A stretch of DNA of 35,960 bases. Origin: a virus. The notes under the pieces are model-generated. The model searched no databases and was not told the DNA's origin. It saw only the letters and a list, made by a program, of their open reading frames with translations. The position numbers and the translations under genes were made by a program. Positions 3,801 to 25,134 of this stretch are shown in pieces; position 1 is the first letter of the stretch, and the number at the start of each line of letters is the position of its first letter. The stretch lies in the IMG/VR virus record IMGVR_UViG_3300009648_000002, positions 1 through 35,960 of that record. One strand, written 5' to 3'.

Positions 3801-4393
3801 CGGTGATGCTCATGAAATCTGTTGAATTCGCGTCTAAAGAATGGTGGGAGCTGAACAAGAGAGAGTCAAAGAAGATCGAGGACTCAATAATCAGGCTGAG
3901 GAAGGAGGGGTATAAATACGATGAAATCTCTGATGCTCTTAAAGTAAGCAGACAGCGTGTATGGAGAACCCTGTCAAGGCAGGGTTTAGTCCATAATTCA
4001 AGAGATATGGAGGAGATCAGGGCGAATGTTCACAGGCTCTACACGTTGGGGTACACTATACCTGAAATCGCTGCGACTGTTAAGATCAGTAAGAGGTGTG
4101 TGCGTCAACTTGTCAATAAAATTGAATACCCGTACAGGTGGCGTGTAAACCAGGAAGGGAGATTCATGAAGGTGGGATGGGAGCATCCCCGCCCCTTCAC
4201 CATCTTTGAGCTCCATAAAGCCTACAAGCTACACGTTGAGGAGGGGTGGAGTATCCTGAAGCTCATGAAGATCCTCGGTGGCGGATACATGACTGTCAGG
4301 AGGTACATACAAGCATATGGTGCAGGGGAACTCGATGAGGTCTGGGAGGCCTATGATAGGTATCATCGGGGCGGTGACGGTGTTCCTGGATGA
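3797..4393 (+). CDS. HTH-domain protein, putative transcription regulator
   Basis: Two HTH-like segments (YDEISDALKVSRQRVWRTL and YTIPEIAATVKISKRCVRQLV); start overlaps the upstream stop. Confidence 0.45.
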   Translation: MTVMLMKSVEFASKEWWELNKRESKKIEDSIIRLRKEGYKYDEISDALKVSRQRVWRTLSRQGLVHNSRDMEEIRANVHRLYTLGYTIPEIAATVKISKRCVRQLVNKIEYPYRWRVNQEGRFMKVGWEHPRPFTIFELHKAYKLHVEEGWSILKLMKILGGGYMTVRRYIQAYGAGELDEVWEAYDRYHRGGDGVPG

Positions 4394-4412
4394 TTAGATG
4401 ATTTTTCATCGT

Positions 4413-4435
4413 TATAGACATATATAGCGAAGTAT
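4413..4435 (+). promoter_or_regulatory. Putative archaeal promoter (TATA-like element plus conserved 14-mer atatagcgaagtat)
   Basis: tatagacatatatagcgaagtat is 19/23 identical to the motif at 10741-10763; both lie 10-14 nt upstream of an operon start codon. Confidence 0.4.
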
Positions 4436-4448
4436 GGGGAGTGGATAT

Positions 4449-4772
4449 ATGATATACATAGTTACACGGCATCAGAGCACTGTTAACTGGATTAAGGCTA
4501 AACTGAATGGTAAAGGCCTTGACCGGGACGTCTTCGTCGCAGGGCATCTCAGTGATCAGATGATCCTGCAGATGAAGAAGGGTGATGCTGTCTACGGCAT
4601 CCTCCCCATCCACCTCATCAAGAGGTTGCTCCGTAAGGGTGTGGATTATTATCATATGGTCCTACCCGATGTCCCTGAGGAATTCAGGGGTAAGGAGTTG
4701 AGTCTTGAGCAGGTGAAAGCGTTTGGAGGTCAAATATGGAAAATTAGGGATATTGATTGTGTTGAAGTATAA
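4449..4772 (+). CDS. Small protein (107 aa), possible Csx16/VVA1548-like CRISPR-associated (ring-nuclease-like) protein; identity uncertain
   Basis: Start at ATG 4449, in frame with the track ORF from 4434; motifs IVTRH and GILPIHL recall Csx16-family proteins from memory only. Confidence 0.35.
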   Translation: MIYIVTRHQSTVNWIKAKLNGKGLDRDVFVAGHLSDQMILQMKKGDAVYGILPIHLIKRLLRKGVDYYHMVLPDVPEEFRGKELSLEQVKAFGGQIWKIRDIDCVEV

Positions 4773-4799
4773 AAAAAGAAAAAATAGGTTATAGGTGGC

Positions 4800-4985
4800 T
4801 CACCGATCCCGAGGAATAACCCTCCACCGGCCCAAGACGAGGGCCTTCTGGAGGGCCGTGAATTCCTCGGGAGTGATGTCATACTCCCTGAGGAACTCAT
4901 CAAGGGACATCTTGTCCACTATTTCGTGTCTGTTCAAGGTCATCCCAAGAATATGGGATAACCTGAACCTTTTCTCTGTACTCAT
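4800..4985 (-). CDS. Hypothetical small protein (61 aa)
   Basis: Minus-strand ORF preceded by gaggtgagatag-ATG, the RBS pattern used elsewhere in this genome. Confidence 0.45.
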   Translation of the reverse strand: MSTEKRFRLSHILGMTLNRHEIVDKMSLDEFLREYDITPEEFTALQKALVLGRWRVIPRDR

Positions 4986-5004
4986 CTATCTCACCTCAAT
5001 AAAA

Positions 5005-5148
5005 CTACACTATCCTCTTCACCCTGATCTCGAGGAGGACAGCTTCATCATCCTTCATGCCGAGTGCTTCCCTGACGGCTATGGGGATTGATATCCTCCC
5101 CTGCCTGTCAGGTTTGGCGGTGAAGGTGAACTCAGTCACCTTCACCAC
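5005..5148 (-). CDS. AbrB/SpoVT (MazE-like) swapped-hairpin domain protein, 47 aa; sub-threshold gene absent from the ORF track
   Basis: Minus-frame translation VVKVTEFTFTAKPDRQGRISIPIAVREALGMKDDEAVLLEIRVKRIV fits the AbrB/MazE core pattern (GRISIP...RE.LG...D); GTG start preceded by a GAGG-like RBS; overlaps the 3' end of the acidic-protein gene. Confidence 0.45.
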   Translation of the reverse strand: MVKVTEFTFTAKPDRQGRISIPIAVREALGMKDDEAVLLEIRVKRIV

Positions 5149-5389
5149 CCCTCTCGTCGATGTATTTCATGACGCGGTCGAAGAGTTCCTCTGCGGTCTG
5201 ACCATCCTCATAGCTGAGCCAGTGGATGGCTACTGAGTCTTCGTCGAGTTCCTCTGGGTAGTAGAAGTCCTCAACGAGTTTGAGGGCATCCTCAAAGGCC
5301 ATCTCAGCTTCCTCGTATTCTTCCAGGATTTCATCTTTGAGTTCATTGGCGAGCTGGATGATCTCCAGCTCCTCTTTTGTTCTTTTCAT
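5132..5389 (-). CDS. Highly acidic small protein (85 aa)
   Basis: About one third of residues are D/E; intact ORF in the minus-strand operon. Confidence 0.5.
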   Translation of the reverse strand: MKRTKEELEIIQLANELKDEILEEYEEAEMAFEDALKLVEDFYYPEELDEDSVAIHWLSYEDGQTAEELFDRVMKYIDERGGEGD

Positions 5390-5391
5390 GA

Positions 5392-5973
5392 CTATTCCTC
5401 CCTCCTTTCAAGTTCTTCTTCGAGGAGGTTAATCGCCTCCTCAACATATTCAGGGTCAGCCCATTTAAGCTGACCCCGTGCTTCGAGCCATCCGCATAGC
5501 TTCCTATACTTCCCCAGGGTGGTGAGCCCTGGGGCGTGGATTATTCTGTCGATTTCGTACCTGAGAACCCCACGATAAAAGTCCTCGATGAAGGCTATTA
5601 CGCCTTCATCAACCGGGCCCTCCACCCTGTACAGTGGCACAACCCTCCCAGTGGACTCGACGTAAGCGATAACTGTGAGGGTTTCATCCCTCCTGCGGTA
5701 CAGGTAGAGGCCCTCCCGGATCCATGTCCCGGTCCAGTGCCACCGTTCTACCTCCGCAGCCACAAGTATCCTACCCAGCCCCATGTAGGGCTGGTAAAAA
5801 TCAACATCATCCTCGGCGGCTATGCCTCCGACCCTTACGATCTCCCACCCCTTGGCGTTGGGGTGGGACTCCCCTGTTATGGCCTGGGCGAGTTTCCCGG
5901 GCCGTACGAGGAACTCGTCCCCATTTCTTTTGAGGAGGGCTCTGCGCACACCCTCCATGACGTCAGTTTTCAC
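5392..5973 (-). CDS. Hypothetical protein (193 aa)
   Basis: Minus-strand ORF in the GC-rich cassette, immediately upstream of the acidic-protein gene on the same strand. Confidence 0.5.
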   Translation of the reverse strand: MKTDVMEGVRRALLKRNGDEFLVRPGKLAQAITGESHPNAKGWEIVRVGGIAAEDDVDFYQPYMGLGRILVAAEVERWHWTGTWIREGLYLYRRRDETLTVIAYVESTGRVVPLYRVEGPVDEGVIAFIEDFYRGVLRYEIDRIIHAPGLTTLGKYRKLCGWLEARGQLKWADPEYVEEAINLLEEELERREE

Positions 5974-6438
5974 TTATTCCACCTCCTTGAGGTCTACGTT
6001 GTAGACCTCTCCAGCCCTGACCCTGTCGGCCAGGGCCTCTACCTGGGTCGCTGGGGCGGCGACCCAGAAGTGTTCCTCGTCGCAGAGCCCACAGGACCCT
6101 GCGACGAGGACGACCTGGACCCCTGCCTGGGCCAGGTCGAATGCTATGCGGTAGAGGTCTACCGCATGCTCCTCGAGGAGGTCTTCGTCCTCCTCCTGGA
6201 AGTCTGAGAGGTCCCAGAGGACCTCCCAGAACTCCTCCCCCTGTGGGTGGAGTATTTCTTCCCCACCCACAATGGAGATCTCTTCGAGGATGGGGAAGGG
6301 GTTCTCCCCATCCTGGTTGTATTCGCTGATGGCCCTTAGGGCCTCCACGGTGTCTCCCATGGAGGCCCTGAGAAGGGCCCCATGCGCGATCTCTACTTCC
6401 GCGCATATTTCCACAATTTCTTTTCGCATATTCACCAT
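5974..6438 (-). CDS. Hypothetical protein (154 aa), first gene of the minus-strand operon
   Basis: Minus-strand ORF directly upstream of the 193-aa gene; a TATA-like sequence lies upstream on the minus strand around 6516-6530. Confidence 0.5.
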   Translation of the reverse strand: MVNMRKEIVEICAEVEIAHGALLRASMGDTVEALRAISEYNQDGENPFPILEEISIVGGEEILHPQGEEFWEVLWDLSDFQEEDEDLLEEHAVDLYRIAFDLAQAGVQVVLVAGSCGLCDEEHFWVAAPATQVEALADRVRAGEVYNVDLKEVE

Positions 6439-10769: not shown

Positions 10770-11294
10770 GTGATGATGAAGGGTGAGGAAGAGAAGCACA
10801 GGGAAGCATACGACCATTACCTCGCCCACATTGAGGCAGGATACACAAAGACGGCGAGCGTCAAAGAAACAGCCAGAAGGATAGGGGTCTCCGAGGCAAC
10901 AGTCTGGAACTGGAAGAGACGCTTCCACTGGGATGAGAAACAGGCGATAGACAGCTACGAGATCAAAGAGACGTTCAAGGAAAGGAATCATGAGATCATC
11001 ATAGACTTCAAGACCAAATACCTCGCATTCCTCAATGACCTCATCGACCAGGCGATAGAGGAATTCCGTGAGGGCCGGGGCGTCGTCATGATACGTGATG
11101 TTGGGGACCTGGAACGAGTGATTAAAGTTGCCCTCCTCCTCCAGGGCGAGGCAACAAGCAGGACTGAGAGCAGCGTCCTGCAAGTGAACCGTGAAAAGAT
11201 AGAAGATTATGAGGAATACTTCAGAGAATTAGAGGAGGAATTTGGGGCGGGGGACGCTGAGGATGAGAATCAAGGTGCGGAGGGGATTTACTGA
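10770..11294 (+). CDS. terS: Putative terminase small subunit (HTH DNA-binding)
   Basis: HTH-like RIGVSEATVWNWKRR; position immediately upstream of and overlapping the large terminase gene. Confidence 0.5.
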   Translation: MMMKGEEEKHREAYDHYLAHIEAGYTKTASVKETARRIGVSEATVWNWKRRFHWDEKQAIDSYEIKETFKERNHEIIIDFKTKYLAFLNDLIDQAIEEFREGRGVVMIRDVGDLERVIKVALLLQGEATSRTESSVLQVNREKIEDYEEYFRELEEEFGAGDAEDENQGAEGIY

Positions 11295-12618
11295 TGCGGA
11301 GAAAGACTTCCTCACTGAGACAGTCCTTAAAAACCCTTACATTCCACATAAACCATTCCTTAAGCAGGCGATATTCCTCACCAGACTCGACAGGGAACTG
11401 CTCTATGGTGGTCAGGCGGGGGGTGGGAAATCTGACGCTCTCCTCATGGCAGCCCTCCAATATGTCATGTACCCGGATTATCATGCACTCTTACTTAGGA
11501 GGACTTACAAGGAATTAGCCCTTCCAGGTGCCCTTATGGATCGTGCGGATGAATGGTTAACACCTACAGATGCTGAGTGGGTCGCGGAGAACAAGACATG
11601 GGAATTCCCATCAGGAGCAACCCTCACCTTCGGTTACCTTGAGCATGAGCGGGATAAACACCGATACCAGTCCTCAGAGTTCCAGTTCATAGGCTTTGAT
11701 GAGCTCACAGAGTTCCAAGAGTCACAGTACACATTCCTATTCAGTAGGAACAGGAAGACAGAGGACAACCCCGTCCCCTTGAGGACAAGGGCTGCGACGA
11801 ACCCTGGAGGCGTGGGCCATGAATGGGTGAAAAGACGATTCATTGAAGGCCCAGCACCATTCCTTCCATCCAGTTACACTGAAAACCCTTACCTTGACGC
11901 ATCATATGAGGAAAGCCTTGATCTCCTCGACCCGATCACCCGACGCCAACTTAAATATGGTGATTGGTCCGCGACGATAGAGGGGAGGATCTTCACTGAG
12001 GATATCCTTGATTACTATGATGAGCCGCCGACACCAGAACAGACACGTCTTGCAGTCAGGTACTGGGACCTTGCAGCCACACCTGACAGGAATGATGACT
12101 CAATAAGTGGCGGTGCGGATTGGACGGTCGGGGCCCTCCTACTCCTTGACGACTCCGGAGGCCTCTACCTTGAGGATATCATCCGATTCAGGCTTTCACC
12201 CGCGGAGGCTGAGGATATGATCATTCAAACGATCCGTAACGACTTTCAAGTTTATAGGGAGAAATACATGGCGCGGGCTGAACTGGAGGGAGGAGCCTCT
12301 GCAAGGTATGTGATGGAATCCCTCCGCAGACGCCTGGCTGGGGTGAACTTTGACGGATCCCCTGTCCAGGGTAAAAGTAAACTAGATAGGGCCAGAGCGT
12401 TGATCCCAGCATTCAGGACATCCCAGTTAAGGCTTAAGAGGGATGCTCCATGGCTCTACACATTCACGAGGGAACTCCTCGCATTCCCATCAACTGGTGT
12501 TCATGATGACCAGGTCGACGCCCTCAGCGGGGCCTACCTCCAGGTCGCTGACTTAACATCAGGGGATCCGTATGGGGCTTCAGGTAGGCGGTATAAAGGT
12601 TATGGGGTGACATATTGA
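11242..12618 (+). CDS. terL: Terminase large subunit
   Basis: Walker A-like LYGGQAGGGKSDALL near the N-terminus; C-terminal nuclease-type motif HDDQVDAL; followed by portal; start may be ATG 11263. Confidence 0.7.
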   Translation: MGRGTLRMRIKVRRGFTDAEKDFLTETVLKNPYIPHKPFLKQAIFLTRLDRELLYGGQAGGGKSDALLMAALQYVMYPDYHALLLRRTYKELALPGALMDRADEWLTPTDAEWVAENKTWEFPSGATLTFGYLEHERDKHRYQSSEFQFIGFDELTEFQESQYTFLFSRNRKTEDNPVPLRTRAATNPGGVGHEWVKRRFIEGPAPFLPSSYTENPYLDASYEESLDLLDPITRRQLKYGDWSATIEGRIFTEDILDYYDEPPTPEQTRLAVRYWDLAATPDRNDDSISGGADWTVGALLLLDDSGGLYLEDIIRFRLSPAEAEDMIIQTIRNDFQVYREKYMARAELEGGASARYVMESLRRRLAGVNFDGSPVQGKSKLDRARALIPAFRTSQLRLKRDAPWLYTFTRELLAFPSTGVHDDQVDALSGAYLQVADLTSGDPYGASGRRYKGYGVTY

Positions 12619-13979
12619 GTTTCATTGAGAGGATAAAATCTATTATCGGGTCTGTGACCAGCAGGGGCTCAAGGGACGCCCCATTACGTGTTAGAGGGTA
12701 CCGTAGGGAGAGGCCCCGACAGGTAGGCTCGGATCTGACTCTTGAACAGATAAAGTATGTGATGAGGGACACCCAGGTAGAGACAGCATACCACCTCTTC
12801 GAGAGCTTCCTCCTATCCAGGCAGATGACCCTCAAAAAGAATCGTCGTGAAGATCGTGGGGATATGGGAGGGGATGTTGAGTCATTCGTTTCAGACATCT
12901 ATGAGAGACTCATCGGATTTGAGAGAAGATTACGCCGTGACATCTACACCGCCATCCTCTACGGCTTCAGCGCCCATGAAATCATCTACACGACGAAGGA
13001 GATAAATGGGAGGATCCTCCTCACCATCGATGACCTGATACCCATCCACCCAGAGACGGTCTACTATGATGATTCATTCATCTTCGATGAGGATACAGGG
13101 GAGTTCCTGGGGTTAAAACAGAACATCCCATACCATCGTCAGGATGAAGAGGATGTCCCTGAGTACATCCCACGGGAGAAACTCCTCTTCTTCAGCTTCA
13201 AATCACATTTCAATGATCCTCGTGGGCGGAGCATCCTTGCAGGGATCTATGACAACGTCCAATTCAAAGAGGACGCGATGCGATGGCTCCTCATATTCTT
13301 GCAGAAACATGAGAACCCCACCCTCGTTGGGAAGGTCTCCAACCCCGCGAATAAGGAAGGCCTCCTGAGGAGTTTGGAGATGATTGATGAGGGCCTCACG
13401 AAGATTACTGTGGGTAAGGATGACAGTGTCGAGCTTGTTGAATCATCAAAGAATGGTGACGCCTTCTTTGAGTTTATCAAGTACAATGATAACGTTATAC
13501 TCCGCCAGTTCCTTATAGGCACCCTCCTGCTCGGTCAATCCGACAAGGCGAGCGGCAGTTATGCGCAGGCCATGACCCAAGAGTCTGTTCTCAGGACAGC
13601 CCTGGAGGGTATACATAAGGACATCGCCGGATCCATTAATGAAGTTATCCTCCGCCTTGTTGAGTACAATTTCGGTGAGGATGCTGTTAAATCTGCTCCG
13701 CTTATAGAGTTTGAGACGTTCACTGATAGACACACGATTGAATTGCTGCAAGCCCTTCAGGGCTATGCGACCGGCCTCCTGATTGACACTGATTCAGAGT
13801 GGTTCAAGAAGCTCATCGAGTACAGTATACAGGACGCTACCGGTGAATCAATCCCATTATCCCCTGAGACCCGCGTAGCACCGGTGAATGACCTGGAGGA
13901 CCTCCCACCTGGCGAGTTACCGGAGATGGAATCACGTCTTGACGATCTACTGAGGCACGTGCAAGGCTCTGGCAGGTGA
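12615..13979 (+). CDS. Portal protein
   Basis: 454-aa protein directly after terL with overlapping start/stop; size and position typical of portal. Confidence 0.6.
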   Translation: MSFIERIKSIIGSVTSRGSRDAPLRVRGYRRERPRQVGSDLTLEQIKYVMRDTQVETAYHLFESFLLSRQMTLKKNRREDRGDMGGDVESFVSDIYERLIGFERRLRRDIYTAILYGFSAHEIIYTTKEINGRILLTIDDLIPIHPETVYYDDSFIFDEDTGEFLGLKQNIPYHRQDEEDVPEYIPREKLLFFSFKSHFNDPRGRSILAGIYDNVQFKEDAMRWLLIFLQKHENPTLVGKVSNPANKEGLLRSLEMIDEGLTKITVGKDDSVELVESSKNGDAFFEFIKYNDNVILRQFLIGTLLLGQSDKASGSYAQAMTQESVLRTALEGIHKDIAGSINEVILRLVEYNFGEDAVKSAPLIEFETFTDRHTIELLQALQGYATGLLIDTDSEWFKKLIEYSIQDATGESIPLSPETRVAPVNDLEDLPPGELPEMESRLDDLLRHVQGSGR

Positions 13980-15746: not shown

Positions 15747-16252
15747 TAAGGATGGTTGTGAAATACAATTATGGTGAAATAGGCCCCGGGGTTGCCATGG
15801 AGCTCAAAGAGGGGAACCTAACAGTCTCAGAGATCAGCACGCCACATGGTACGCAGGTAGGCGCCACATTCCAGTACCCTGCTAAGAAAGGGGATATAGT
15901 GGCCCTTGCAGGAGACCTCCTCGTTGAAAAACTAAGGAGTGGAGTGACAGGGAAACCTATAGGCGTCATTGAGGACGAACCACAATTCCAGGGCCAACCA
16001 CCATCATCCAACGCTACCTACGGGAACTACCCGAACAGGATCGCAGCGGTCAAACTATTCGGTGTTGCTGTGAGGGAAATGGAACTCACGTCATCAAACG
16101 CGGCGATCACTGCAGGGGACTACATCAAAGTCGCCTCTGATGGGCAGACTATAGACAAGTCAACTGACCCTACTGATAAGATAGCCCTTAAATCAGCATC
16201 CGCCAATAGTGGCGCTGAGATACCAGTCCTCGTAGGCTACTACTACAAATAA
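15743..16252 (+). CDS. Hypothetical head protein (169 aa)
   Basis: Position in the head module; overlapping start. Confidence 0.4.
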   Translation: MIRMVVKYNYGEIGPGVAMELKEGNLTVSEISTPHGTQVGATFQYPAKKGDIVALAGDLLVEKLRSGVTGKPIGVIEDEPQFQGQPPSSNATYGNYPNRIAAVKLFGVAVREMELTSSNAAITAGDYIKVASDGQTIDKSTDPTDKIALKSASANSGAEIPVLVGYYYK

Positions 16253-16261
16253 GGTGATAAT

Positions 16262-17179
16262 ATGCCCGCTATAACAACCACAATGCCACCTGAGGCCCTC
16301 CTCAGGAAACATAACCTGGAGTACTATATAACTGAGAAACTCATACCTGAGGTCCCATTCCTCAACATACTCCCAACAGCTGATAACACGACAGGGGAGT
16401 TCACCAGTGTCGTGGAATCTATGAACCCGGTCGCTGATATCAAGGATGGGAAGCAGGGACTTCCTGGCCTTGCTAGTGAGGCCTCAGACCTCACCACGAT
16501 CCAGTTGCAGGCAGGGAAGGTCGTCTCTGGGAACACAGTCTCATATGGTTACAGCCTCGCATACACTGACAAGGACGCTGAGAGAGGCCAGTTCACAGCT
16601 GATATACAGTTAGCGACTCAGAGGATGATCGCAGGCTTCGCATACTTCCTGAACGAGTACATCGCATCAGAACTCGTTAGGACAGCAGGCCTATCCGCCC
16701 CAGATGACCTCAGTGACTGGGCCCTCGATGAATATGATCCCCGCGGAGACCTCCTCAAGATACGTAAGAAATTCAGGGAAGAAACAGGCCTATTCCAGGC
16801 TGATATGGTCCTCCTATCACTTGATCCATACTATAAGATCCAGGAGTACCTCCTAAGCTTCGATAAGGAGGTGGATGAGGAGAACATGTCAGTCGATGGT
16901 ATGATGATCAAGAACGTTGGTGACTCCTTCGATGACACGAAGGACATGATCGTCATGGACTCTAAGGCCCCTCCAGGCATCATAGAGAAGTATGTTAGCC
17001 CAGAATACTCAGCACTATCATCACAGGCCGCCCCAGGAGTCCCACCAGCACTTATCAACATCAACGAGGTTAAAGAGGACACCTACCCACACAGGAACAT
17101 ACTAGAACTCTGGGTTGACATCGGATACAACAGTAGGGAGCCTGGAAGCCTGATGACAGGACAACTCATAAGGTCATAG
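16262..17179 (+). CDS. Putative major capsid protein
   Basis: 305 aa, follows the scaffold candidate; assigned by gene order only. Confidence 0.45.
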   Translation: MPAITTTMPPEALLRKHNLEYYITEKLIPEVPFLNILPTADNTTGEFTSVVESMNPVADIKDGKQGLPGLASEASDLTTIQLQAGKVVSGNTVSYGYSLAYTDKDAERGQFTADIQLATQRMIAGFAYFLNEYIASELVRTAGLSAPDDLSDWALDEYDPRGDLLKIRKKFREETGLFQADMVLLSLDPYYKIQEYLLSFDKEVDEENMSVDGMMIKNVGDSFDDTKDMIVMDSKAPPGIIEKYVSPEYSALSSQAAPGVPPALININEVKEDTYPHRNILELWVDIGYNSREPGSLMTGQLIRS

Positions 17180-17481
17180 TGGTGACGCTAATGGGGTTCA
17201 CAGAACTGATCAGAGGGAAAGGAGGCCCTATCAGGGGCCTCTATGACCTCGTACTCGTCGTGAAGGACAAATCCGTTGAGATAATCGGGCCAAGGACGGG
17301 TACGGGTGAGGAAGAGACAGTGAGCCACACCCTCGGCGCAACTCCTAGTAAGGTTGTTGTTGCCCTGGCATCAGTCCCTGCTGAAGGCGGAGCCTCAGCG
17401 ACGGTAGGAAACAAAACAGCTACTACAGTGAAAGTCACAGTGACTGCATCCGCCAAATACTACGTGATACTGCAGAAATAA
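17179..17481 (+). CDS. Hypothetical head-tail joining region protein (100 aa)
   Basis: Position between capsid and tail genes. Confidence 0.4.
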   Translation: MVTLMGFTELIRGKGGPIRGLYDLVLVVKDKSVEIIGPRTGTGEEETVSHTLGATPSKVVVALASVPAEGGASATVGNKTATTVKVTVTASAKYYVILQK

Positions 17482-17489
17482 CGGTTAAC

Positions 17490-17894
17490 TTGGAGGGTGT
17501 GTGGATGGTTTCAGTTGACACTGAGAAGATCATTGAAATGGTGAGCGTCTACGTGGACACACCATCAGATACCCTTGTTGATGGTGCGGTGGAGAATGCT
17601 ACTCAGACAGCGCTCCAATCACTGCGCACAGCAGGCTACGATGAGACTTCACTCGATGGGTACACTGAGGACACATACAGAGTGGCTATAGAGTTCTATG
17701 CTATAGCTGATCTGATCAGGGCACTCTATAATGCTAATGACTCCTCTGGGGAGGACCAGGTCAGGTATTACATGGAGCGTGGGGATCGTTTGATGCAGGA
17801 ACTGGTCATGGAACTTGACAGGAACTCCTTGGACAGTGAATCCAGTCCAGTGTCAGCCGTTAAGACTGATTACGTCTACAATACAAGGTATTGA
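17490..17894 (+). CDS. Putative head-tail connector/adaptor protein
   Basis: Position only. Confidence 0.35.
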   Translation: MEGVWMVSVDTEKIIEMVSVYVDTPSDTLVDGAVENATQTALQSLRTAGYDETSLDGYTEDTYRVAIEFYAIADLIRALYNANDSSGEDQVRYYMERGDRLMQELVMELDRNSLDSESSPVSAVKTDYVYNTRY

Positions 17895-18346
17895 GTGTGG
17901 GGGTGGATTGTGGGATGGTCTTTGAGATCGAGATAGATCGCAGCGTACTTGATGCCCTTGCAGGGGCCGCGGATAAGGTGAAGGACTACATAATCGCCGG
18001 CCTCGATGATTTCATGAGGAGCCTTGAGTCAGATGCTAAATTCAGCGCTCCGATCAGGACTGGGAATCTCAGGGCGAGTCATGTGATCTATGCTCCTGAT
18101 GAGTTCACCCGTGTCCTGACTGTTGACACGAATCAGGCCCCATACGCGGTGTTTGTACATGAGGGCACAAGTCCTCATGTTATTGAACCTGTCCATGCGA
18201 AGGCCCTGTTCTTTGATGGTCGCTTTGCGAAGAGGGTGCATCATCCTGGGACTCCACCCAACCCCTGGATGAGGGATGTGATTGAGGACGCTGACCCCAC
18301 AAGTCACATAGAGAACTACCTCTCACTCCTCCTAGGAGGTTTATAG
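17891..18346 (+). CDS. Putative head-tail joining protein
   Basis: Position; overlapping start. Confidence 0.35.
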   Translation: MSVGVDCGMVFEIEIDRSVLDALAGAADKVKDYIIAGLDDFMRSLESDAKFSAPIRTGNLRASHVIYAPDEFTRVLTVDTNQAPYAVFVHEGTSPHVIEPVHAKALFFDGRFAKRVHHPGTPPNPWMRDVIEDADPTSHIENYLSLLLGGL

Positions 18347-18347
18347 T

Positions 18348-18779
18348 ATGCCTGATTACTCCTACATCAAGGATATAGGTTCAAACCTTGTTGATCTTCT
18401 TGAATCAACAGGCCTGTTTGATGATGTACGGTTAGGGGTCCCAGAGAAGACTCCGCAGTTTAAGAGAGCTGTTGCAACTGTATACACGACTGAGGGCTCA
18501 TTTGAGAACACTATGGGGTCATATAACATACCAGTAGAGGCTAAGTCAGTTGTATTCGCAGTGTATCGCGGTACAAAGCCAGAGAGTTATGATAGGGCCA
18601 TGGATGACCTTACAACGATCATAGGGAAATTTAACAGTGACAAGGACTGGTATACAGTGAAGGGCGCGACACGCATGACAAGCATAGAATCATATCAGTA
18701 CATACCCCGAGCCGTTGGCCAAGCATTCTACACAACAATAATCTACACCCTCAAACATGACGTTAGACAACCCTACTAA
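18348..18779 (+). CDS. Putative tail completion protein
   Basis: Position only. Confidence 0.35.
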   Translation: MPDYSYIKDIGSNLVDLLESTGLFDDVRLGVPEKTPQFKRAVATVYTTEGSFENTMGSYNIPVEAKSVVFAVYRGTKPESYDRAMDDLTTIIGKFNSDKDWYTVKGATRMTSIESYQYIPRAVGQAFYTTIIYTLKHDVRQPY

Positions 18780-18808
18780 GATTATAAAACATTTTTTGAG
18801 GTGAATAC

Positions 18809-19792
18809 ATGCCACCAGTACGATATTTTGGTTTTAAGAAGGAAACAAGCTTCGGGACTGAGGCAACAGACTCCAAGTATGATATCACGATAGCAGAGTC
18901 AGTCAGCCTTGATGTCCCTGATGACCCTGTGATACCTTTACCCACATTATCCGCGTTCCCGCGCGGACAAATCGCAGGGTACTACGCGAACAAGGGCTCA
19001 TTCGAGTACCCAATAGATATCAAGACGATAGGATACCTCCTCTACTTTGGTATGGGAGGTTATACCTTCACTTCAGGGACACCAAACAACACACACGAAT
19101 TCTATGCCTCCCAATCCAAGACGCTACCATCATTCACGACACGTGTGGGTAAGGACACCTTTGAGCACGTGTTCCTGGGGACTGTTGTGAACAAGATGAA
19201 CGTCTCAGTAGAGGATGAAGTCGCGGTGATGAAGACGGATCTCCTCGCTAAGAAGGATAAGAAGGATAATATAAGGACAACCCTGAATGAGCCGAGCGGG
19301 ATATTCCCAATAGCGTTCTACAAGGTGAACGTATCGATTGGAGGCACTGATGAATCCCCTAAGATCAAGTCCTGGGAGCTTGAATATGATAATGGTATCA
19401 AGGAGGATTCTGGTCGCGGATTCGGATCCAGGTTCCCCTACGCATTCTATACAGGGGATAAGTCCTGTAGCCTCACCCTGAAGATGAAGGACGATGACAG
19501 TTCTATTCTTGAAGCCTTCTGGGGTGACAGTTCAGGTGCTAGTGAAAGCTCACCCGCCACATTCCAGGTTGTCACCACATTCGACGCCGGCTCAGCAGGC
19601 ACTATGACCGTAACATTCCCTAAATGTTACTACAAGAAGATTGACACATCAATTAAGGGTGCTGAGCCCAGGGAACCACAAGTAGAACTCGGATGCCTTG
19701 AAGATGAAGTAACACTCAATGATGGCACCACAAAAGTAACCACACCTTGCTATGTCAAGATAGTGAACTCCGAGACAAGCGTATCAACCTAA
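18809..19792 (+). CDS. Putative major tail protein
   Basis: 327 aa, upstream of the chaperone and tape-measure genes; RBS gaggtga. Confidence 0.45.
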   Translation: MPPVRYFGFKKETSFGTEATDSKYDITIAESVSLDVPDDPVIPLPTLSAFPRGQIAGYYANKGSFEYPIDIKTIGYLLYFGMGGYTFTSGTPNNTHEFYASQSKTLPSFTTRVGKDTFEHVFLGTVVNKMNVSVEDEVAVMKTDLLAKKDKKDNIRTTLNEPSGIFPIAFYKVNVSIGGTDESPKIKSWELEYDNGIKEDSGRGFGSRFPYAFYTGDKSCSLTLKMKDDDSSILEAFWGDSSGASESSPATFQVVTTFDAGSAGTMTVTFPKCYYKKIDTSIKGAEPREPQVELGCLEDEVTLNDGTTKVTTPCYVKIVNSETSVST

Positions 19793-19814
19793 AATGATAT
19801 AGGAGGAATTAGTT

Positions 19815-20258
19815 TTGAGTAAAAACAAGGAGAACATCCAATTATTTGAGGAACTCCTGAAAGGGAGGGAAGGATACGTTGAACACAAGGTTGAGGGTCT
19901 TGAAAGACCAGTGAAACTAAGACCACTTACATGCTCTGAGATACTGGAACTGCAGAAGATAGAGAAAGAGGGGATGAAGGCCACAATCGATATAGAGGGC
20001 CTCATGAATATGTCCCCAGGTGAGCGCAGAGCAGCTGTGAAGGACCAGACACAGAAACTGAAACAAGAACTTGACTTCGCGAAGACACAGGAGGCCAGGG
20101 CCAAGGTGAAAATGACCGCGGTGGCCTACTCCTCAGAGACCCCGATGGAGATAATCCAGAGGCTCCCTCACCGTGTCCTGAATGACCTGTTCATGAAGGT
20201 CATGGAGATCAGTAGCGTTTCAGAGGAAGAACTGGACACACTCAACCAATTTCGCTGA
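19815..20258 (+). CDS. Putative tail assembly chaperone
   Basis: Small acidic helical protein directly upstream of the tape-measure gene. Confidence 0.45.
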   Translation: MSKNKENIQLFEELLKGREGYVEHKVEGLERPVKLRPLTCSEILELQKIEKEGMKATIDIEGLMNMSPGERRAAVKDQTQKLKQELDFAKTQEARAKVKMTAVAYSSETPMEIIQRLPHRVLNDLFMKVMEISSVSEEELDTLNQFR

Positions 20259-20493
20259 AGAAGATGAAGGACGTATCCTTTGGGCTGTACACAACTCAGG
20301 GGCGCGTATATGTGACAGAGCATCAGACCTAACCGAGAAACAAAGAGTCTTCCTAGCCCACGCATACTACCTCGAATTGAGGGAGGAGCGCGAATTCCTC
20401 GCTAAGGCCCTCGGCGCGGAGGTTAGTGATGGGGGTGGAGGAGTCTCAGAGTCTATGAAACGGAAGGCGAGGAGGATGGCCCAACGGGTCTAA
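20194..20493 (+). other. Start-codon-less open frame overlapping the chaperone 3' end in the +1 frame; possible programmed-frameshift extension
   Basis: About 99 sense codons open in the frame at +1 relative to 19815-20258, with no ATG/GTG/TTG start until near its end. Confidence 0.3.
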
Positions 20494-20504
20494 ACCACTC
20501 CTCA

Positions 20505-20513
20505 TTTTTTTTT
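20505..20513 (+). terminator. Oligo-T tract (T9), possible archaeal intrinsic terminator or attenuator
   Basis: ctcatttttttttaggg just before the tape-measure start. Confidence 0.3.
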
Positions 20514-20524
20514 AGGGTGCATGT

Positions 20525-23500
20525 ATGGATGAGATAAGTGTAATTGTAAGACTATTAGACGAGTTCAGTGGGAACCTGTCCTCAATGGTAACAACTGCAG
20601 AGTCAGCCCTTTCAAGCCTCGAGGCCACAGCAAACTCATCATCTTCATCATTATCTAAGATGGGTTCTGCAGCGACAGAGTCAGGTCAGGCGCTGAGTGA
20701 AGCTGCGAAGGGTGCTGAGGAACTTGGGAGCTCCACATCGGCTATAAATTCAGCGCCATTATCTGATGTCTCAGGCGCTGCGAATGAAGCGAGCAATGCG
20801 TTGAATGACACGAGCCAAAGCGCTGAGAATCTCTCCACGAGTCTGACGAATGTGAATGCGAAGGATCTTATCTCAGCATCATCCAGCACCCGTGAACTTG
20901 GCACAGAACTTGATAAAAGTGCTGAAGCGGCTGATAAATTAGCTGATAAAACAAAGGAGGCTAATGAGGAGGTTGAGAAGACCGGTAAGGATACTGTGGG
21001 CCTTGCAGCCATCACGGCGGCCCTGAGCACACTGACTGCTGGGATGGAGATGGCTGCAAGGGAAGCAACTAACCTGAACGCAACATTCCAGAAGATGGGA
21101 TCAGCCAAGATGCCAGAGCCAGAGGTAAGGAGCTTCGTAGCATCTCTCATCAGCGCTAGACTACCACTTGAGGATGTCCTCGCCTACCTGAAGGTTTTGA
21201 AACAGAGCGGACTTCAGAGTGCTGACTCGTTACGTCGTGGTGTGTATGCTCTGAATGACCTCAGCCTTGCTACAGGCGTGAATAGAGATGAAGTTATCAG
21301 GTTTACGAATTCATTGATTGTTATGGGTGTCCGCCTCGATGAGATCCCTAAACATTATAATGCTATCGCATATGCTCAGGCGAACATCGTGGGCGGTTTT
21401 GGTACGTATATCAAGTGGATGGAGAAGTTTGACGCGTCATTTAAGGAGTTAGGGCTCACAGTGGATCAGACTGTTGTCCTCATCGCTGCAGCGACGAAGA
21501 AGTTTGGTGGTGGTCGTGCAGCGTACACTGGTATGAGCCGGGCGCTCAAGGAGTGTAATGGAGATCTCTCAGTCCTCGAACAAAAGTTAGGCTTGCAGCC
21601 AGGGCTCCTCAGCCGAGCATCCGCGATGACATCAAAGTACTCTGGGAGTATCGAAAAGAAATCAAAGATAATGAAAGAGAATGTCACGATATATGAGCGC
21701 CTCCAGGAGGGTGTGGAGAAGCTCCGTATTCAGTTCAGCTGGCTAATCGCCCCGATCCTAAGTGTAGGGGGCCTGATTGGGGGTCTTGTGAGTACATATA
21801 TGGCCTATCAGACGTACCAGTCAGCTGTTGCTACTGCAGCGAACACTCAGACACTCGCAGAGATTGCGAAGGCAAAGGCACTCTTCACATCCACCGTGGC
21901 GACAGAGGCCCAGGCTGGTGCTGAGACAACAAAGACAGCAGCAACTGTAACATCCACTCTTGCGACTGTGAGGAACACTGTCGCGAACCAGGCCCTCATA
22001 TTATCTACGTATGGTTCAGCCGCGGCCTTGCAGACTGCGGTGGGGGCTGCGATGGCCCACGCGGGTGCTGTGGCGGTCGACACGGAGGCCCAGAATATGG
22101 GTATCCTTGCATCCCTCAGGTACACTGCGGCGCTGGCCTGGCAGCGGATCGTCACGGCTGCGACGACCGCCTACACGTATGCCCTCGCGGCGGCTCAGTG
22201 GGTCTGGAACGCGGCCCTCGCAGCCTCCCCGATCACATGGATCGTCTTAGCTGTGGCTGCTCTTGCAGCAGCCCTTGTGTATCTCTACTATAATTATCAG
22301 CCAGTTACGGATGCTGTGAACAAGTTTGCAGAAGGTCTTAAGTGGGTTGGTAGTGTTATCTATGGGTACCTCCTTGGAGCGTTTAATGCGCTGAAGGGTG
22401 CTCTCTCTGGGGTTGGTTCAGCGATTCAGGGGGCTCTTGGCGGTGCGTTGAACTGGATTATGGGTGGTCTCAAGCAATTAGCTGGTTTCATCTATTACGT
22501 CTTCTTCTCGTTCAAGTTCGTGGATGATATGGCCTCCAGGTTCGGTTTCCTGGGCCTGGCGATATCATTCGCCATCAATCCAATCAGGACAGTCATTGAA
22601 TACGTGAAACAACTGAAGATAGCCTGGGATTCATGGAGCAAGACCAGTGAGGCCCAGAGGGTCTTCGCCGAGCTGGGAGCGGCGTTCAATGAGCTGAAGG
22701 CTGCGTTCGGTGAGGTCTGGGCCGCCTTGCAACCGGTCTTCAAGGCACTCGGGGAAGCGTTCAATGAACTCAAGAACGCGTTGTTCCCGGTCCAGGAGAC
22801 CAGCAGGGCTGTGCAGTCCACTGGTAAGAGCGCCTCCTCCGCGTCCGGCCCGATACAGGTCTTCGTGGAGATCATCCGGGCCTTCGCATGGATCCTCACG
22901 AACGTGGTGGTCCCAGCCATCAGGATACTGGCGGAGTGGATCCATTACCTCGTCCCTGTCTTCCAGGCCATTGGATTCGCCATATCCGCAGTGATACAGG
23001 TGATGGTGTTCATCGGGCAGGTGGTCTGGAACGTGATCACATTCCTCACGAAATTCGGTCAGGCCCTCCAGATGCTGATTAGTGGCCATATCACCTTCTC
23101 CCAGTTCATGAGCGTAGTCTGGAACCTGTTCAAGGCCACGGTTGGCCGGATACTCCTCGAGGTGGTCCTCGCAGTGGGCAGGTTCGGGGCACAGTTGATC
23201 GGGAAAGCTGTGGCAGCGGCTTTAGGATTCGTTAACTCATTCCTATCATTCATAAGGAGCCTACCTGGACGTCTCTGGATTATGCTCCTCATCGTAGTGC
23301 AGAGGATCATCGCATGGGCAAACAAGCTCAGGGAGATGGCCCGTCAGGCTGCCTCTAACTTTGTCTCAAAATTTATTGGAGGAATCACTGGACTCCCTGG
23401 ACGTGTGGGTAAGGTGATGTGGGATGTGGTGAACGCGATTAAGAACAAAGTGAATGACGCCTATAACGCGGCGAAACAGTTCGGTCAGAACGTGTGGAAC

Positions 23501-24937
23501 GGTATCAAGAGTGCGCTGCACATTAAGAGTCCGAGTATCATCTATAAACAGATAGAAGCCGACACAGCCCTCGTGAATCAGCGTTTCAGGAGCATGGCCA
23601 GCTCTGCAAGGGCTGCTGCAAGCACGTACGCGAAAGGGATACGTGAGGGTATGGATATTGCAGGGACAAATGTGCCTATAGACTCCACCCTGAAATCTTC
23701 ACCTGTTGCGGGTGCTGTGGATGAAACAAGGAAGGCAATCACTGACATGCATGGTGTCACAAGGACAGGACTCACTAACATCGTGAATACATGGAGTGGC
23801 ATCGAGGAAACAACACAGAAGACGCGTGACTCCTATAATGCTTCAGTGGATATCACACGAAACGCTATGACCACAATGAGCACCACGACAAAGACCACAA
23901 TGACCCACATCAAGACAGGGTTCAACTCAATGAAAACTGAAGTAATCTCCGCCGCCAGCCGCACAAAGACAGGAGTCACCGGGCACCTGAACACACTCTC
24001 AACCAACATCCGCAGATTCTACAACCTCGTCATGAACCCAGGGGCCGGTGGCCCCGCAGGAGGGCCCTCAAGAAGGGTGTTCACAACTCCCAGCATCCCC
24101 AAGCTTGGATGGGGAGGCCCGCCACGAGCCATGACACCCACACCACCCCTAACAGGCCCCGAAGCCTATACTGCAAGGGGAGCGCGCCGCCTCCAAAAAA
24201 TCGCTGAGGAATACTACAAGATGCTATCCTGCCCATCATGCTATGGGGCTGGCTGGGATTACTCAACGAGGATGACAGGATGGGTGAACCGGACAGTTGA
24301 CAGGTACCGTGTAGGTTGGCTCCCAGGGATCACCCTGAAAGCCGGGGATTTCTCAACGTATCCTCCACGAGGACTTGCAGGGAACCTTGCAAGGTTCATC
24401 CCATTCATTTCAAGCGTGATAGGGCGAACACATTACAGGTTCTATTATGGTGATAGTGGCCTGTCACCGGCCGAACTCCTCAGGGTAGGCTCATTTAACT
24501 GTTATGATGGGGCCCGCCTTGTTGTCGCCTTCGCCAGGGCCTTCGGGCTCCCTGCAAGTATCCGTTGCGGCTTGAGCTGGGGAGGTATACCCCATTGCGC
24601 AGCAAATGTCGCGGGGATGTGGTTTGACACAACCGCCTTCCAGCAAGGATATGGCTGGACAAGTCCCCGGGTAACAGGGTATGGCGGCCCAACAAGCCCA
24701 GATATAGGTGTGGGCCCTGCAAGGATTGAGCACCATGCAGGGGACGTCCACATCAACGTCGAAGTCAATGGGGCCGCGGGATTGGATGAGAAGGAACTCG
24801 CGAAGAGGATAATGGAGGCGGTCACGGATAACAGGACAATCAAACGCCTCACAAGCCACCCCGTCTTCCTCCGCAGATTCGATGAGGAGTACGGGAGGTA
24901 CGCTGTGAATGATGCGAGGAGGACTGGTAGCAGATGA
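20525..24937 (+). CDS. Tail tape measure protein with C-terminal Pei-like cysteine peptidase domain
   Basis: 1470 aa; serine/alanine-rich helical N-terminus, central hydrophobic segments, position after the chaperone. Confidence 0.8.
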   Translation: MDEISVIVRLLDEFSGNLSSMVTTAESALSSLEATANSSSSSLSKMGSAATESGQALSEAAKGAEELGSSTSAINSAPLSDVSGAANEASNALNDTSQSAENLSTSLTNVNAKDLISASSSTRELGTELDKSAEAADKLADKTKEANEEVEKTGKDTVGLAAITAALSTLTAGMEMAAREATNLNATFQKMGSAKMPEPEVRSFVASLISARLPLEDVLAYLKVLKQSGLQSADSLRRGVYALNDLSLATGVNRDEVIRFTNSLIVMGVRLDEIPKHYNAIAYAQANIVGGFGTYIKWMEKFDASFKELGLTVDQTVVLIAAATKKFGGGRAAYTGMSRALKECNGDLSVLEQKLGLQPGLLSRASAMTSKYSGSIEKKSKIMKENVTIYERLQEGVEKLRIQFSWLIAPILSVGGLIGGLVSTYMAYQTYQSAVATAANTQTLAEIAKAKALFTSTVATEAQAGAETTKTAATVTSTLATVRNTVANQALILSTYGSAAALQTAVGAAMAHAGAVAVDTEAQNMGILASLRYTAALAWQRIVTAATTAYTYALAAAQWVWNAALAASPITWIVLAVAALAAALVYLYYNYQPVTDAVNKFAEGLKWVGSVIYGYLLGAFNALKGALSGVGSAIQGALGGALNWIMGGLKQLAGFIYYVFFSFKFVDDMASRFGFLGLAISFAINPIRTVIEYVKQLKIAWDSWSKTSEAQRVFAELGAAFNELKAAFGEVWAALQPVFKALGEAFNELKNALFPVQETSRAVQSTGKSASSASGPIQVFVEIIRAFAWILTNVVVPAIRILAEWIHYLVPVFQAIGFAISAVIQVMVFIGQVVWNVITFLTKFGQALQMLISGHITFSQFMSVVWNLFKATVGRILLEVVLAVGRFGAQLIGKAVAAALGFVNSFLSFIRSLPGRLWIMLLIVVQRIIAWANKLREMARQAASNFVSKFIGGITGLPGRVGKVMWDVVNAIKNKVNDAYNAAKQFGQNVWNGIKSALHIKSPSIIYKQIEADTALVNQRFRSMASSARAAASTYAKGIREGMDIAGTNVPIDSTLKSSPVAGAVDETRKAITDMHGVTRTGLTNIVNTWSGIEETTQKTRDSYNASVDITRNAMTTMSTTTKTTMTHIKTGFNSMKTEVISAASRTKTGVTGHLNTLSTNIRRFYNLVMNPGAGGPAGGPSRRVFTTPSIPKLGWGGPPRAMTPTPPLTGPEAYTARGARRLQKIAEEYYKMLSCPSCYGAGWDYSTRMTGWVNRTVDRYRVGWLPGITLKAGDFSTYPPRGLAGNLARFIPFISSVIGRTHYRFYYGDSGLSPAELLRVGSFNCYDGARLVVAFARAFGLPASIRCGLSWGGIPHCAANVAGMWFDTTAFQQGYGWTSPRVTGYGGPTSPDIGVGPARIEHHAGDVHINVEVNGAAGLDEKELAKRIMEAVTDNRTIKRLTSHPVFLRRFDEEYGRYAVNDARRTGSR
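24431..24730 (+). other. Transglutaminase-fold Cys-His-Asp peptidase domain, pseudomurein endoisopeptidase (Pei)-like, within the tape measure
   Basis: SFNCYDGARLVVAFARAFGLPASIRCG...GGIPHCAANVAGMWFDTT shows ordered Cys/His/Asp in a G.CyD.A...A.GiPaR context. Confidence 0.55.
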
Positions 24938-25134
24938 CGGATAAGATAGTGCTCGGATTCGAGGCCTTCAGGGCGAATGGGAGCAGAGTAGTCTCAAGGA
25001 TCGAAACAAGCCTCTATAACCCTTACACTGAGGGAGTAACCTACGGTGTCAGCGTCCCAGCGATGAAGGTCTCAGGGGAGGATGATCTCTGGGTGCAGGA
25101 CGTCGGAGGATTCAGGGTTAGGGTGGTGATCTGA
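24934..25134 (+). CDS. Small tail-associated protein (66 aa)
   Basis: Coupled ORF between the tape-measure and large tail protein genes. Confidence 0.4.
   Translation: MTDKIVLGFEAFRANGSRVVSRIETSLYNPYTEGVTYGVSVPAMKVSGEDDLWVQDVGGFRVRVVI

Follow-up and report, generated by a model that had tools for sequence, protein, structure and literature searches.

The chaperone frameshift exemplified by lambda gpG/gpGT is conserved among long-tailed phages (Levin 1993; Xu, Hendrix and Duda 2004, both as cited in PMC5009743), and this G/GT frameshift is widespread and mostly proceeds in the -1 direction (PMC5009743). Among archaeal viruses, haloarchaeal siphoviruses use -1 heptamers, and the chaperone shift of HSTV-2 has been described as 'very likely +1' (PMC5009743, PMC8211752). 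A +1 shift has also been predicted between the two chaperone coding sequences of the HF1 group of haloarchaeal myoviruses (HF1, HF2, Serpecor1, and Hardycor2), where the proposed site, TTT-CGC, lies close to the first stop within 15 bp of perfect conservation, and for which the influenza and amalgavirus sites were cited (Dyall-Smith et al. 2020, PMC7230728). The present analysis concerns 35,960 nucleotides of viral DNA (positions 1 to 35,960 of the IMG/VR record IMGVR_UViG_3300009648_000002; hereafter the window), in which a gene placed like a tail assembly chaperone, at 19815-20258, is followed by an overlapping open frame in the +1 frame. This frame is likely to be reached by a programmed +1 shift at a conserved TTT_C sequence, which would yield a chaperone fusion of the G-T type.

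According to reviews, -1 frameshifting (fucA) is the only type shown experimentally in Archaea, whereas the +1 event of HSTV-2 is 'apparent' (PMC8211752). For the MSTV1-like viruses, which include vir075, a -1 shift has been described in the capsid gene and none in the chaperone (PMC11375127), and no report of a +1 chaperone shift in methanogen viruses was found in the searchable literature. A sequence-only reading of this DNA had called a +1 chaperone shift unusual; such shifts are rare, although they are not without precedent, as proposed for HSTV-2 and the HF1-group haloviruses (PMC5009743, PMC7230728).

The locus shares with lambda G/GT its gene position, a second frame that overlaps the first and lacks its own start codon, two products that have the N-terminal part in common and differ by a C-terminal extension, and a presumed role in tail assembly around the tape measure. 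Unlike lambda and most phages, which shift by -1 on X_XXY_YYZ, the window holds no such heptamer, and its shift would be +1. The closer likeness is to the HF1 group: both are archaeal tailed viruses with two chaperone open reading frames (ORFs) flanked by the genes for the tube and the tape measure, the second ORF being in the +1 frame, both lack the usual slippery heptamer, and both have TTT_CGC very near the stop of the first ORF, the shift being a prediction in either case. This likeness is one of layout and motif. However, the host here is a methanogen of the Methanobacteriales type and not a halophile, and the tail is of the siphovirus type, without a sheath gene, in contrast to the myovirus tail of the HF1 group. 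Moreover, unlike in the HF1 proposal, the element conserved across approximately 14 methanogen-virus lineages is TTT_C with a variable next codon rather than TTT_CGN. On these sequence grounds, the locus appears to use the same device as the HF1 group in a different group of archaeal viruses, which extends a known phenomenon and changes no concept. The features on which the argument turns are the following:

19815-20258, + strand: putative tail assembly chaperone gene (the 'G' part), zero frame, with a TTG start and a TGA stop at 20256-20258; 147 aa, 17.0 kDa
20197-20249, + strand: upstream stretch of the +1 open frame, inside the chaperone gene
20247-20258, + strand: proposed +1 shift site CAA_TTT_CGC_TGA, with TTT (20250-20252) in the P site and CGC (20253-20255) in the A site
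20254-20493, + strand: 'T'-like extension, +1 frame after the slip; 79 codons (AEEDEGRILW...AQRV) and a TAA at 20491-20493

The extension and its reading frame

The +1 frame opens after a TGA at 20194-20196, stays open over 98 sense codons (20197-20490), and is closed by the TAA at 20491-20493; over the same interval, the zero frame holds six stops and the -1 frame five. The overlap with the chaperone gene amounts to 62 nt, or approximately 20 codons. These values agree with the frame of about 99 codons, overlapping the last 20 or so codons of the chaperone, described by the sequence-only reading, but the end that it gave, 20524, is the base before the ATG of the tape measure gene and lies beyond the end of the frame at 20493. 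The same reading saw no plausible start until near the end of the frame. No start indeed occurs early in it, although the first ATG, GTG, or TTG, a TTG at 20377, is codon 61 of 98 and thus stands about two-thirds along.

A megablast search of positions 16000-25000 against phage records gave no match at the DNA level, and all relatives came from protein-level searches. The chaperone is 34% identical to ORF20 of Methanobacterium virus PhiF3 and, via PhiF3, also matches Methanobacterium virus Drs3 and Methanobrevibacter gottschalkii virus vir075. A profile search contributed 26 further cluster representatives, including the Methanobacterium formicicum chromosome CP006933 and one uncultured Methanobrevibacter scaffold, and both near-identical and 55-83% related contigs were found in IMG/VR, Logan, ENA, and JGI metagenomes. 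The set used for comparison comprises 26 related loci of approximately 14 lineages, among them PhiF3, Drs3, vir075, and the M. formicicum CP006933 provirus; loci are designated below by L numbers. A metagenome scan added members only of clades already in this sample. Scans of genome contigs with the tube alignment and the tape measure C-terminus, by means of peptide patterns that were poorly conserved, returned no match, and the tape measure query against viral contigs returned a near-identical contig alone. The C-terminus of the tape measure is 66% identical to that of PhiF3. On the strength of these protein similarities, the window is assigned, as a virus or a provirus, to the group of methanogen siphoviruses to which the Anaerodiviridae belong.

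The order of genes in the window (tube, chaperone, the +1 ORF to 20493, and tape measure) is identical in all relatives, and it is this position that points to the first ORF as a tail assembly chaperone, the other evidence being indirect. The phrog_344 family, 'tail assembly chaperone', is matched by 21 of the 24 sequences of the chaperone alignment (A6), with a best E-value of 5.2e-9, and the record of vir075 names its homologue a tail assembly chaperone as well. An AlphaFold model reached usable confidence in the G part only. A fold search of BFVD with this model returned the Drs3 protein and several annotated chaperones with weak scores (for instance, Mycobacterium phage Madruga, E = 0.014 and a TM score of about 0.3), and a search of the PDB gave no match beyond noise.

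The coding nature of the extension was examined in eight pairs of relatives, compared over the part beyond the chaperone stop. The ratio of nonsynonymous to synonymous polymorphism (pN/pS) is 0.16-0.47 in the +1 frame, on a par with the values of the chaperone gene itself, versus 1.0-2.3 in the other two frames. Differences pile up at the third codon position of the +1 frame (19-51, versus 5-27 at the second; for example, 7/5/19 and 17/10/41 at positions 1/2/3), and stops are absent from the +1 frame, versus 4-10 in the other two. An indel between the window and L002 measures 6 nt, a multiple of three. Conceptual fusions from seven lineages align through the junction at 24-46% identity, with invariant residues both in the G part (L29, R36, P37, L38, S133, and F146, among others) and in the T part (G152, G162, L172, T173, Q176, and E190), the latter being conserved at the protein level down to 24-30% identity; PhiF3, Drs3, and vir075 have the invariant residues of the T part in common with the window. 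What sets the open frame apart from chance is this purifying selection in the relatives and not its length, and the substitution pattern indicates that the extension is real coding sequence in the +1 frame. A frame left open by chance, or the decayed remnant of one in a non-coding spacer without a product, would agree with a T part that lacks PHROG and Pfam matches and is modelled with low confidence. However, selection specific to the +1 frame in all eight comparisons, residues that stay invariant at such low identity, and an indel that keeps the frame make this explanation scarcely tenable, and the relatives diverge too far from one another to be assembly duplicates of a single sequence.

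The extension in the +1 frame is found in 26/26 related loci, so the frame conservation that the sequence-only reading proposed to check holds throughout the set, and yet the relatives point to no conserved initiation codon belonging to it. In the extension frame, the first ATG, GTG, or TTG stands at codon +42 in the window, L004, and L009, at +19 in PhiF3, at +45 of 50 in Drs3, and at +39 in L034 and L036. A start at any of the codons from +19 to +45 would therefore leave out the N-terminal half of the T part, conserved as DEG...W/L...G...DLTxxQ. A separate small gene, expressed by non-canonical initiation or by termination-reinitiation after the chaperone stop without any fusion, might nonetheless be considered: gene callers put a gene of 86-87 aa here in L002, L003, and L005, starting at an ATG or TTG within the overlap, a GTG codon directly follows TTC in L016, L017, and L020, and production independent of frameshifting has been proposed for T4-like chaperones (as cited in PMC10274946). 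The start codons chosen by the callers, however, are not conserved, the window reading AGG and TGG at these positions, and the window, L004, L009, PhiF3, Drs3, L034, and L036 offer no start before the codons listed above. A separate gene would also leave unexplained both the strict conservation of TTT_C and the onset of +1-frame conservation right after it, and we regard it as unlikely.

The TTT_C site and the proposed slip

In all of the related loci (26/26), an in-frame TTT followed by C is found one to five codons upstream of the chaperone stop, as in the following examples, written in zero-frame codons:

Window: CAA_TTT_CGC_TGA
L010: CAA_TTT_CGT_TAA
L014: GAA_TTT_CGC_TGA
L016: CGA_TTT_CGT_GAG_AAG_TGA
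PhiF3: CAA_TTT_CAT_CCG_GAG_CGA_TGA
Drs3: AAA_TTT_CCT_GAA_GAC_GGA_TGA
vir075: GAC_TTT_CCT_GAA_AAC_AGC_TGA
L031 and L038: GAC_TTT_CTT_GAA...
L020, a more distant relative: TAT_TTT_CGT...

TTTC is the sole invariant block of four nucleotides in an ungapped alignment of ten lineages. The codon that follows TTT varies across the loci (CGC, CGT, CAT, CCT, or CTT): it is CGN in the window (CGC), L010 (CGT), L014 (CGC), L016 (CGT), and L020 (CGT), but not in PhiF3 (CAT), and it is CCT or CTT in the clade formed by Drs3, vir075, and M. formicicum. To judge from these sequences, a CGN codon in the A site is not required in the methanogen-virus group. The E-site codon is variable as well (CAA in the window, and GAA, CGA, AAA, GAC, AAC, ACC, or TAT elsewhere), with TCC in L032 and L033 only. 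Two patterns in the encoded residues point to this site as well. Read in the +1 frame, the codon after Phe always specifies A, V, I, or L, but the zero frame gives R, H, P, or L. Moreover, the change between CCT and CTT, which alters the zero-frame residue (Pro/Leu), has no effect on the +1-frame protein, since the codons there, CTG and TTG, both stand for Leu.

The position of the site is confined from both sides. In PhiF3, Drs3, L016/17, L034, and L036, a stop two codons upstream of TTT interrupts the +1 frame, and in the window clade the zero frame ends one codon after it. Since the opening of the +1 frame and the zero-frame stop flank TTT in this manner, the shift would be confined to about four codons centred on TTT_C, provided that the event is homologous. 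Because the +1 frame is shut two codons before TTT in the five cases named, the stretch 20197-20249 of the window is probably open by chance, without being translated in that frame. The sequence-only reading named the whole overlap as the region to search; the site does lie inside it, but only the last 9 of the 62 nt matter. The search of 20194-20258 that it suggested, for slippery heptamers or rare-codon pause sites, brought out TTT_C, but neither a -1 heptamer, none of which was found in the region, nor an A-site codon that is consistently rare.

Codon usage sets this site apart from the remaining genes of the window. TTT makes up the minority of Phe codons (21%) but is the one found at the proposed shift site in every case. 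Among the 36 genes on the + strand, TTT is followed by C at only 5 of 79 in-frame TTT codons, versus 18.6% expected (binomial p = 0.0017), whereas C follows TTC in 62 of 296 cases (Fisher test of TTT versus TTC, p = 0.0016). The only in-frame TTT_CGN in these genes is the one at 20250, and none of the other four in-frame TTT_C sequences (8005, 8569, 12244, and 34070) continues with CG. This scarcity fits selection against an error-prone sequence in the rest of the viral genes.

A mechanism for such a site has been described for influenza PA-X, where P-site tRNA-Phe moves from UUU to UUC at UCC_UUU_CGU with an efficiency of approximately 1% and without the need for a stimulatory structure (Firth et al. 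2012, PMC3498833). There, a single tRNA-Phe binds UUC more strongly, and 'PA-X-like' sites are also known from amalgaviruses, fijiviruses, and chronic bee paralysis virus (PMC3498833). The window shares with PA-X the UUU_C in zero-frame phase, a CGN codon in the A site (here CGC), and the lack of an evident 3' stimulatory structure. On the other hand, the E-site UCC is not conserved, the window having CAA, and sites of the PA-X type belong to eukaryotic RNA viruses read by eukaryotic ribosomes. The resemblance is mechanistic only and implies no homology. Other findings agree with a slip of this kind: the region has neither a -1 heptamer nor a homopolymer run, the RNA after the site forms no structure of unusual stability or conservation, an Rfam scan found no family, and TTT_C is scarce in the other genes. 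A search of the window for tRNA genes found none.

By analogy with PA-X, the slip of P-site tRNA-Phe from UUU to UUC is the most likely mechanism. Most ribosomes would read 19815-20258 and stop at the TGA, giving a G-like protein of 147 aa. We infer that a minority would shift while tRNA-Phe is paired with the P-site UUU (20250-20252), before CGC is decoded: the tRNA, whose GAA anticodon would pair better with UUC than with UUU, would slip one base forward onto UUC (20251-20253), and reading would resume in the +1 frame from GCU (20254) to the TAA at 20491-20493. The expected efficiency, as for PA-X, is about 1%. The predicted product is a fusion of 225 aa and 25.7 kDa (...LDTLNQF|AEEDEGRILW...), resembling lambda gpGT, with the predicted +1 junction peptide ...LDTLNQFAEEDEGR, also expected from the window virus in the form ...VMEISSVSEEELDTLNQFAEEDEGR; in PhiF3, the predicted junction reads ...SELDQFIR, and the junction peptide would be ...VNVEESELDQFIR, while for Drs3 ...EIEKFLK is predicted. 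As in lambda (PMC5009743), the shared G part may bind the tape measure protein and the T part may recruit the tube protein, the low frequency of the shift setting the ratio of G to GT. The proposal of a G/GT-type shift in the +1 (or -2) direction made by the sequence-only reading is supported, at the level of comparative genomics, by synteny, purifying selection, the want of a conserved start, the +1 extension in every related locus, and the TTT_C at the join.

Other kinds of recoding would lead to the same frame, since -2 and +1 shifts are equivalent in this respect. In structural genes of tailed phages, gpGT of phage Mu is made by a -2 shift, and Listeria phage PSA and Bacillus phage SPP1 use +1 shifts (all as cited in PMC3498833). 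These cases have in common with the window a recoding other than -1 in structural or assembly genes and the same relative frame. The Mu type needs a sequence for re-pairing two bases back, which is neither present nor conserved at the site: tRNA-Phe would have to pair with AAU, or tRNA-Arg with UUC, and no repetitive run is conserved around TTTC, the sole invariant block. The shift of Listeria phage PSA takes place at a proline codon adjoining a stop, and such a codon is likewise neither present nor conserved here. A +1 shift at the stop itself, as in prfB or PSA, would suit the stop directly after a CGY codon in the window and its two closest clades, but CGC cannot re-pair with GCU, and the stop lies two to four codons further on in PhiF3, Drs3, vir075, and L016. 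As for transcriptional slippage, 20150-20300 holds no homopolymer of at least five bases. Taken together, recoding by any of these routes seems very unlikely next to a P-site slip at TTT_C. An upstream Shine-Dalgarno stimulator of the prfB kind was considered separately and rejected, the GAGGA-like strings being Glu/Asp codons at 17-30 nt from TTT and at a distance that varies.

Several results weigh against a frameshifted chaperone fusion and have to be set beside this evidence. The G protein of the window itself matches chaperone families only weakly and below the cut-off (phrog_1442, tail assembly chaperone, E = 0.053; PF06896, E = 0.026). The T part (49-79 aa) matches no PHROG or Pfam family, and its pLDDT is below 50 in the AlphaFold model, the alignment for which took in the G part only. 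Possible in-frame starts occur near the site in a few relatives, namely an ATG at -9 codons in L002/L010 and the GTG at +1 in L016/L017/L020. No RNA structure downstream of the site is stable or conserved (z-score +0.61, and a consensus fold without predicted pairs), and no upstream stimulatory element is conserved across the relatives. CGC and CGT each account for 7.0 per 1000 codons in the window, versus 25 per 1000 for AGG, and are thus uncommon without being the rarest; a 'hungry codon' pause in the A site is doubtful, because the A-site codon is not consistently rare and relatives use CAT, CCT, or CTT.

Two other distant IMG/VR contigs also show a +1 arrangement: L019 (5212-5309), with TTT_TTT_CTT, a T6 run followed by C, and an overlap of 98 nt, and L020 (1690-1724), with TAT_TTT_CGT. 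They may reflect a wider use of TTT_C sites, or convergence. In L021-L023, distant relatives of the tube protein family (26-27% identity of the tube protein), a textbook -1 heptamer, C_CCT_TTA, is found at the chaperone stop; in L021 (5570-5600) and L023 (5571-5601), the extension is in the -1 frame and the heptamer directly precedes the stop. With a -1 heptamer in these contigs and +1 sites elsewhere, both solutions therefore exist around one type of tail module.

Annotation of the predicted fusion, and frameshifting in Archaea

The +1 extension is unannotated in all three GenBank records checked (PhiF3, Drs3, and vir075), and the T part is thus missing from them; gene callers omit it or pick a non-conserved start in the overlap. 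Recognition of TTT_C would make the fused product annotatable across the methanogen-virus group. The site is kept over approximately 14 lineages, three of which are cultured viruses or proviruses of cultured hosts, and so offers a narrow target for work on +1 shifts in Archaea. The observation that the next codon apparently need not be CGN bears, moreover, on how PA-X-like sites work.

A broader and more tentative proposal, somewhat short of an even chance in our judgement, is that UUU_C acts as a general +1 site on archaeal ribosomes that needs no stimulator, and that tailed viruses of two archaeal lineages far apart, the HF1-group myoviruses of Halobacteria and the siphoviruses of Methanobacteriales, both set their chaperone G:GT ratio by it. 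If so, the scarcity of TTT_C in viral genes (5/79 TTT codons) would reflect real shiftiness in the host, and the shift might depend on how archaeal tRNA-Phe is modified. Since PhiF3 and Drs3 are cultured isolates, it would also be the first programmed +1 frameshift in Archaea that experiments could prove directly.

Neighbouring genes and other observations

The head-tail morphogenesis module of the window is complete and lies entirely on the + strand. Its genes and the signals that flank the chaperone locus are as follows:

11242-12618, + strand: terminase gene, part of the head-tail virus morphogenesis module
12615-13979, + strand: Mu-type portal gene, morphogenesis module
16262-17179, + strand: capsid protein gene, morphogenesis module
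18809-19792, + strand: tail tube (major tail) protein gene; Pfam PF18906 Phage_tube_2, E = 2.1e-12; PHROG phrog_290 tail, E = 1.8e-14
19801-19806, + strand: AGGAGG, Shine-Dalgarno-like, read from the sequence; 8 nt upstream of the TTG start of the chaperone
20505-20513, + strand: T9 run, within the 31-nt spacer from the extension stop to the tape measure start
20514-20519, + strand: AGGGTG, Shine-Dalgarno-like; 5 nt upstream of the tape measure ATG and kept in close relatives
20525-24937, + strand: tape measure gene, 1470 aa, with a C-terminal transglutaminase-like domain; PHROG phrog_1272 and phrog_58 at approximately 1e-16, also PF10145 and PF01841

The T9 run at 20505-20513, to which the sequence-only reading drew attention, is present, but it lies past the extension stop and has no part in the shift. 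As a shift signal it is rejected both for this position and for the lack of a T5-T9 run in about half of the lineages. In the other half, such a run is found between the extension stop and the tape measure start: in the window within 20494-20524, in L026 within 2087-2201, in L027 within 2384-2455, and after the extension stop in L031, L032, L034, and L038. Its length is T9 in the window and L031, T8 in L008, Drs3, and vir075, and T5 in L003, and it varies even among near-identical contigs. An A-run follows it in vir075, L031, and L038. The run is missing in PhiF3, L014, L016, L029, and L036. Archaeal transcription terminates at T-tracts, and by analogy the T9 run may be an oligo-T terminator or an attenuator that lowers the expression of the tape measure.

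The capsid gene is followed by an ORF of 100 codons (17179-17481) in the -1 frame, whose GTG start and the capsid stop overlap in the sequence TAGTG; that frame is open from 17137. In the MSTV1-like viruses of methanogens, an Ig-like domain is added to the capsid protein by a -1 shift (PMC11375127). Inspection by eye revealed no slippery heptamer here, and the ORF lacks a Pfam match; a second recoding event seems less likely than an independent start.

The C-terminus of the tape measure protein (24400-24700, residues ~1290-1400) holds the core of a transglutaminase-like cysteine protease (PF01841, E = 0.0012), which we take to resemble that of pseudomurein endoisopeptidases. By this analogy, such a core would fit a wall-piercing function and a host from the Methanobacteriales. 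Finally, positions 5392-6438 are the only stretch of the window with long ORFs on the minus strand, and the AT skew turns negative at 4001-6000; these ORFs probably form a regulatory or lysogeny module with divergent transcription.

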